NCBI RefSeq assembly: GCF_003611625.1
Contig: NZ_RAVY01000172.1
Coordinates: 1-20,729 of the forward strand
Direction of reading: 5' to 3'
Origin: Corallococcus sp. CA054B
GTDB taxonomy: Bacteria; Myxococcota; Myxococcia; Myxococcales; Myxococcaceae
Length of the DNA stretch: 20,729 bases
Part shown: positions 4,571-4,714 of the stretch, in pieces
How the letters are laid out: each line of letters starts with the position of its first letter
Position numbering within the stretch: the first letter of the stretch is position 1
Position numbers and translations under genes: made by a program
Notes under the pieces: generated by a model
Seen by the model: the letters and a program-made list of their open reading frames with translations, nothing else
Databases searched by the model: none
Told to the model about the DNA's origin: nothing

Positions 4571-4673
4571 TCCAGTCTGGAACACCGCGCGCCGGAATGG
4601 AGCGAGGGTCCGTTCCAGTCCGGAGCGGCTCGGGGCCGTTCCAGGGCGGAGCGGTGACGGCATGGGGCTCGCA
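4571..4673 (+). promoter_or_regulatory. Candidate regulatory region for the MVP gene: palindrome TCCAGtCTGGA, two direct repeats CCGTTCCAG-N3-GGAGCGG (4610-4628 and 4636-4654), and a sigma54-like -24/-12 element cGGCAtG-N4-TcGCA (4658-4673)
   Basis: Read directly from the sequence. GG-N10-GC spacing and flanks match TGGCAC-N5-TTGCW at 12 of 15 positions. The ATG of the downstream gene is at 4715. Confidence 0.3.
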
Positions 4674-4714
4674 ATGTCTCGCGGCCGAACCCCACCCCCG
4701 CGAGCAGGTGTGCC

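Follow-up and report, generated by a model that had tools for sequence, protein, structure and literature searches.

We report that the ~150 bp preceding the vault gene of Corallococcus sp. CA054B probably constitute a sigma-54 promoter driven by an unlinked NtrC-type enhancer-binding protein, a reading to which we assign a probability of about 0.7. The DNA analysed, referred to here as the window, is a single stretch of 20,729 nucleotides. Upstream of the gene it carries four tandem dyad-symmetric repeats followed by a -24/-12-type element, and our data show the repeats and their dyad geometry, together with the conservation and fixed register of dyads and -24/-12 element in five genera. The initial annotation of this DNA had proposed a sigma-54 promoter with activator repeats in front of the vault gene. 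Phylogenetic footprinting bears that proposal out, while the PWM score of the element in the single sequence is weak, and the support for the putative sigma-54 promoter is therefore its conservation and not its single-sequence score.

The gene itself had been labelled correctly, as its 758-aa product matches all of the Pfam vault families, with MVP_shoulder at 3e-45. The host had been taken to be a Myxococcus. In a homologue search the vault protein matched a hypothetical protein from Corallococcus sp. CA054B at 100% identity, and the organism is thus this member of the family Myxococcaceae. The genes immediately around the promoter are the following:

2491-3261, minus strand: DUF5953 protein
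3249-4307, minus strand: DUF6310 protein
4249-4473, minus strand: Cys-rich protein of 74 aa with a signal-peptide-like N-terminus (secreted)
4715-6991, plus strand: major vault protein homologue, 758 aa (Pfam: MVP_shoulder, Vault, Vault_2, Vault_3, Vault_4)
7077-8051, plus strand: putative lipoprotein with a weak HmuY-like match
8051-9592, plus strand: 513-aa protein belonging to no family

The repeats occupy the 241-bp divergent intergenic region between the Cys-rich protein gene and the vault gene. Directly 5' of the promoter, the minus-strand genes at 2491-4473 form a variable island. Within Corallococcus the upstream neighbour of the vault gene is in some strains this DUF6310/DUF5953 island with its small divergent ORF, in others a co-directional GDSL lipase gene or other genes, and synteny between species breaks at ~4565, just upstream of the first repeat. 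On the downstream side, no plus-strand terminator-like site was found before 9619, and none between the vault gene and the next two genes, in a scan of 4200-9800. These two genes come after the vault gene in only part of Corallococcus, which leaves the vault gene as the sole constant cargo of the promoter.

Further along the window, a Biopterin_H (aromatic amino-acid hydroxylase) gene lies beside a gene for a LysR-type regulator (10737-13346, minus strand), a pair that is also kept near the vault locus of C. terminator. The LysR gene (12426-13346), which adjoins the hydroxylase gene, was set aside as not a candidate for the vault regulator. A 256-nt direct repeat at 16804-17341 (81% identity, period 282 bp or 94 codons) falls within a minus-strand ORF at 16560-17579 that has no Pfam match, and it resembles an internal domain duplication.

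Two direct repeats and a separate palindrome had originally been described upstream of the vault gene. Their positions agree with the sequence: CCGTTCCAG-TCC-GGAGCGG lies at 4610-4628 and CCGTTCCAG-GGC-GGAGCGG at 4636-4654, 26 bp apart, with TCCAGTCTGGA(AC) at 4571-4583. The arrangement is a different one. The motif GTTCCAG-N3-GGAGCG occurs in three exact copies within 86 bp (4568-4653), at 4568-4583 on the reverse strand, 4612-4627 and 4638-4653; there is no further copy in the 20.7-kb window, and 100 dinucleotide shuffles gave 0 matches. What had been called a palindrome at 4571-4583 is in fact the third copy, complete and inverted, and each copy is itself an imperfect inverted repeat, as detected by a repeat finder. 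The region consists of four tandem imperfect palindromes with NtrC geometry, which we call E1 to E4, each with two mismatches to CGCTCCA-N3-TGGAGCG. At up to two mismatches this consensus has five matches in the window against 0.4 expected, the fifth being at 1234, within a coding region. E2, the best conserved of the four sites, had been overlooked, and the second of the repeats first described, E4, is the least conserved. The sites and the elements that follow them are listed below, with site centres counted from the predicted transcription start at 4684:

4550-4566, no strand assigned: doubtful fifth site CGTTCCA-AGC-TCGACAG, 4 mismatches, centre ~-126
4568-4584, no strand assigned: E1, CGCTCCA-GTC-TGGAACA, 7-3-7 imperfect palindrome, centre ~-108; holds TCCAGtCTGGA
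4588-4604, no strand assigned: E2, CGCGCCG-GAA-TGGAGCG, degenerate copy, centre ~-88
4611-4627, no strand assigned: E3, CGTTCCA-GTC-CGGAGCG, centre ~-65; the first of the repeats described initially
4637-4653, no strand assigned: E4, CGTTCCA-GGG-CGGAGCG, centre ~-39; the second of those repeats
4658-4673, plus strand: sigma-54-type -24/-12 element cGGCAtG-gggc-TcGCA, with GG at 4659-4660 and GC at 4671-4672
4684, plus strand: predicted transcription start, 12 nt after the C of the -12 GC (+/-2 nt), from standard sigma-54 geometry
4687-4699, plus strand: conserved C-rich leader motif GAACCCCACCCCC
4705-4710, plus strand: Shine-Dalgarno-like CAGGTG, within an invariant GAGCAGGTG block (conservation 0.90)

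E4 abuts the -24 element, lying 5 bp from its GG. The doubtful site at 4550-4566 is outside the conserved block and recurs only in C. exercitus SDU142, whose upstream neighbour is the one found here.

The GG-N10-GC spacing at 4658-4673 is as the initial annotation gave it, with the GG and GC at the canonical distance of 10 nt, and the element stands 43 bp before the ATG at 4715. Taken from this one sequence, the element is unremarkable. The consensus TGGCACG-N4-TTGCW at up to three mismatches has 25 matches in the window against 34 expected, and 4658-4673, with 3 mismatches in 12, is not above chance in a single sequence. We also scored the window with an 18-column PWM built from 101 validated sigma-54 promoters (S2 table of PMC12316311), against the base composition of the window. 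This check, which had been suggested with the original proposal, returned 7.4 bits for 4658-4673; the position ranks 9 of 41,424 in the window and scores below 96% of the training sites (median 18.6, 5th percentile 8.9), with penalties for a C in place of T before the GG and a C in place of T at -14. Among validated promoters, -12 variants with TCGC or TGGC do occur, for example in glnAp2 and nifF, and TCGC in particular is found at -12 in the glnA promoters of E. coli, Klebsiella and Proteus and in nifF of K. pneumoniae (PMC12316311). A simple consensus scan of 4200-9800 found no sigma-70-like promoter, and there is no Rfam match in 4300-4900.

The comparison with related loci is more informative. 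For this we retrieved 30 loci that code for vault-protein relatives. In 14 of 14 Corallococcus sequences the last ~150 bp before the vault gene are homologous, with homology beginning at ~4565. A search of 27 loci with the pattern GGCA(C/T)(G/A)-N4-T(C/G)GCA found it in 26, and Melittangium boletus carries GGCATG-GGCT-TCGCA. Across 27 loci spread over Corallococcus, Archangium, Hyalangium, Vitiosangium and Melittangium, the element is near-invariant at the same position, and in nearly all of them 41-47 nt separate it from the start codon. Of 26 sequences, made up of the window and 25 orthologous loci, 23 have it as the top-scoring PWM match in the 300 bp upstream, and the scores of orthologous elements range from 0.1 to 9.4 bits. 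At -14, where sigma-54 sites almost always have T, all orthologues have C or G, and the T preceding the GG varies. Over the 26 sequences, column conservation reaches 0.97 in the -24 block and 0.93 in the -12 block. By comparison, four-fold synonymous sites of the vault gene show an identity of 0.54-0.60 between the window and other genera (0.75-0.87 within Corallococcus), and the higher conservation of the element therefore indicates that it is under constraint. The N4 spacer is also conserved, at 0.90; a plain sigma-54 site needs no conserved N4 spacer.

The dyads are conserved to different degrees. E1 lies at a fixed offset from the -24 GG in the 14 Corallococcus loci, and in 10 loci of other genera it takes the form (T/C)GCGCCA-GGG-TGGCGCA or ends in TGGTGCA. 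No upstream element is better conserved than the right arm of E2, TGGAGCG (0.93 over 26 sequences), and in two loci (L014 and L020) E2 is the perfect palindrome CGCTCCA-NTC-TGGAGCG, the site in L014 being CGCTCCAGTCTGGAGCG. E3 keeps a core of CCA-GTC-CGG in Corallococcus and reads GATCCA-TTC-TGGA(C/G)G in other genera. E4 is the weakest conserved and departs from the palindrome at 4.8 positions on average in Corallococcus and at 5.6 in other genera.

The register of the sites is preserved as well. Measured from the -24 GG, E1, E2 and E3 are offset by -91, -71 and -48 in Corallococcus and by -102, -82 and -59 in Archangium, Hyalangium and Vitiosangium. Offsets vary by 1-3 bp within a group, and the internal spacing of 20-23 bp is kept. 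The E1-E3 block thus stands 11-12 bp further upstream in the other genera, about one helical turn, which is the displacement expected if a bound protein must face the polymerase. Dyads with up to three mismatches occur at 16 per kb in the promoter window and at 0.3 per kb in the other 309 kb of the loci, a 54-fold enrichment that mainly measures conservation, because the motif was derived from these same promoters.

Two more distant vault loci (L024 and L029, with 68% protein identity) have neither the GG-N10-GC element nor the dyads, which makes the module specific to the Myxococcaceae/Archangiaceae clade. These two loci share another upstream string, CACGCATGTC.TTGCGTTC.CAT...CTCCTTTCTCT, together with a strong GGAGGAA ribosome-binding site. 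Judged from these upstream sequences, the promoter appears to have been replaced during the history of the vault gene.

Arrays of two to five tandem dyads upstream of a -24/-12 promoter have been documented for NmpR and PexR of M. xanthus and for NtrC of E. coli. The NtrC site of E. coli, TGCACCA-N3-TGGTGCA, is likewise a 17-bp palindrome of 7-3-7 layout, and the arm CGCTCCA is identical to TGCACCA at 5 of 7 positions; some E1 sites of the other genera read TGCGCCA-GGG-TGGCGCA or bear the exact NtrC arm TGGTGCA. The E. coli glnAp2 promoter has NtrC sites at -140, -108, -89, -66 and -45. This sigma-54 promoter likewise has TCGC at -12, and the centres in the window, at -108, -88, -65 and -39, resemble its sites II-V, although there is no conserved site near -140 in the window. 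The three proximal sites of glnAp2 are of low affinity, helping at low activator concentration and limiting output at high. The two differ in that the regulator at glnAp2 is NtrC, whereas the regulator of the window is not encoded at the locus, and there is no nitrogen-metabolism or glnA context at the vault locus.

Myxobacterial systems offer further likenesses in layout. The katB promoter of M. xanthus, controlled by PexR, is a sigma-54 promoter validated by 5'-RACE and by -24/-12 mutations, and upstream of it stand five interrupted palindromes in tandem, three perfect and two imperfect, an array as in the window. The PexR site, CACCG-N6-CGGTG, is nevertheless unrelated in sequence and spacing to the window dyad, and katB is a peroxide-stress gene. 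NmpR, an NtrC-like response regulator of M. xanthus, binds two dyads upstream of the sigma-54 promoters of mxan_4236 and pilR. At its targets, the site nearer the promoter is essential, the consensus is GCGCA-N5-TGCGC and 14-15 bp separate the sites; the window dyads do not satisfy the GCA-N5-TGC core that NmpR requires. Targets of M. xanthus Nla28 carry clusters of three to five short repeated sites upstream of a -24/-12 element in the Myxococcaceae, again a likeness, but the Nla28 half-sites are 8-bp direct repeats, CT(C/G)CG(C/G)AG, unlike the window dyads. Only gTCCGGAG within E3 resembles such a half-site, and it is not kept in other genera. As CGCTCCA-N3-TGGAGCG differs from all three of these myxobacterial consensus sites, we rejected NmpR, PexR and Nla28 as the regulator. 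No gene with GAFTGA or Walker A motifs was found anywhere in the window, nor closer than ~5 kb to the vault gene in the 28 loci fetched, and an enhancer-binding regulator must be encoded elsewhere.

The main rival to the sigma-54 reading is that the dyads bind an ordinary dimeric factor outside the AAA+ class, acting as a repressor or as a class I/II activator, with GGCAYG-N4-TSGCA forming part of its operator or serving as a promoter for another sigma factor. Several observations fit such a factor: the weak PWM score with C or G at -14 in every orthologue, the conserved N4 spacer, the lack of a linked enhancer-binding-protein gene, and the centres of E4 (-39) and E3 (-65), which fall where sigma-70 activators or repressors typically bind. 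The closeness of E3 and E4 to the promoter, nearer than typical enhancers, counts directly against reading them as sigma-54 enhancers. Two further points weigh against the sigma-54 reading: the dyad fits none of the characterised myxobacterial activator sites, and an inverted repeat runs across the predicted start. However, 27 loci keep the GG and the GC unchanged and exactly 10 nt apart, no -35/-10-like pair was found, and a 7-3-7 palindrome in a multi-site array is a hallmark of NtrC-type enhancers. On balance we consider a dimeric factor of this kind unlikely, if clearly the strongest of the alternatives.

Two further explanations appear far less probable. The repeats lie in a divergent intergenic region and could in principle regulate the minus-strand gene for the 74-aa secreted Cys-rich protein (4249-4473) in place of the vault gene; that gene, however, is found in few strains only, and in C. 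terminator, C. praedator and the other genera, the vault gene has another or a co-directional neighbour and still retains the dyads and the -24/-12 element, so that we give this target very little credence. It would be just as surprising if the repeats owed their similarity to chance, had been inherited neutrally, or were a scar left by a mobile or recombination element at the border of the variable island. The synteny breakpoint just upstream of E1 would suit a scar, and close relatives such as strain M7 have several substitutions inside the repeats; against this stand the empty dinucleotide shuffles, the fixed register across genera whose synonymous identity is 54-60%, and the concentration of the motif in the promoter window relative to the rest of the 309 kb.

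We infer how the promoter might work, including its use of sigma-54, its binding by an enhancer-binding protein, its start site and the direction of its regulation. The ~150 bp before the vault gene would act as a sigma-54-dependent, enhancer-activated promoter, with sigma-54 RNA polymerase held in a closed complex on the GG (4659-4660) and GC (4671-4672) separated by N10. Dimers of an NtrC-family protein, encoded elsewhere, would bind the tandem 17-bp dyads E1-E3 (~-108, -88 and -65), and the weaker E4 (~-39) may act as a bridging or limiting site. Upon a signal, the protein would form an active ATPase ring, reach the polymerase from the same helical face and open the promoter. Transcription would then begin near 4684 and proceed through a short leader into the vault gene.

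The leader, predicted to be ~31 nt long from a start at 4684, shows some features of its own. Its C-rich motif, GAACCC(C/T)CC, would span +4 to +16 and is flanked by inverted repeats whose stems vary between species. One such inverted repeat in the window (4678-4684 / 4698-4704) overlaps the predicted start, so that its 5' arm would be upstream of the start. We considered this pair as a conserved leader hairpin, given an apparent compensatory change in C. terminator, and rejected it because the stems are in different registers; RNAalifold gives no consensus structure for the leader hairpin, and the z-score of the fold in the window is -0.1. In four Archangium/Vitiosangium loci (L013, L015, L016 and L017), folds that include the upstream sequence pair the Shine-Dalgarno AGGTG with an ACC(T/C)G immediately before the predicted start; their z-scores are -2.7 to -3.9, and the feature is absent from the window itself. 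Such pairing would silence read-through transcripts and not the sigma-54 transcript, and it recalls the "insulator" effect reported for sigma-54 promoters (bioRxiv 10.1101/086108).

A more specific proposal can be made, although we hold it only tentatively: the vault gene may be the dedicated target of a new NtrC-family activator of the Myxococcaceae/Archangiaceae clade that recognises CGCTCCA-N3-TGGAGCG, with the array following the glnAp2 layout of enhancer plus limiting sites. If this is true, a specific signal switches on bacterial vault particles, and fishing for the activator with its DNA site could reveal that signal.

The promoter biology proposed here is conventional, a well-known kind of bacterial switch, and its interest lies in the gene that it would control. 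On bacterial homologues of the major vault protein of eukaryotes, our literature search found one preprint on sequence and structure prediction and nothing on expression, and it found no work on vault genes in myxobacteria. The putative promoter provides the first regulatory handle on any vault gene of bacteria. A promoter that is conserved and needs an activator implies a vault gene that would normally be silent and induced by a signal. The 17-bp dyads offer a probe toward its regulator, and the identity of that regulator would point to the conditions in which bacterial vaults are made.
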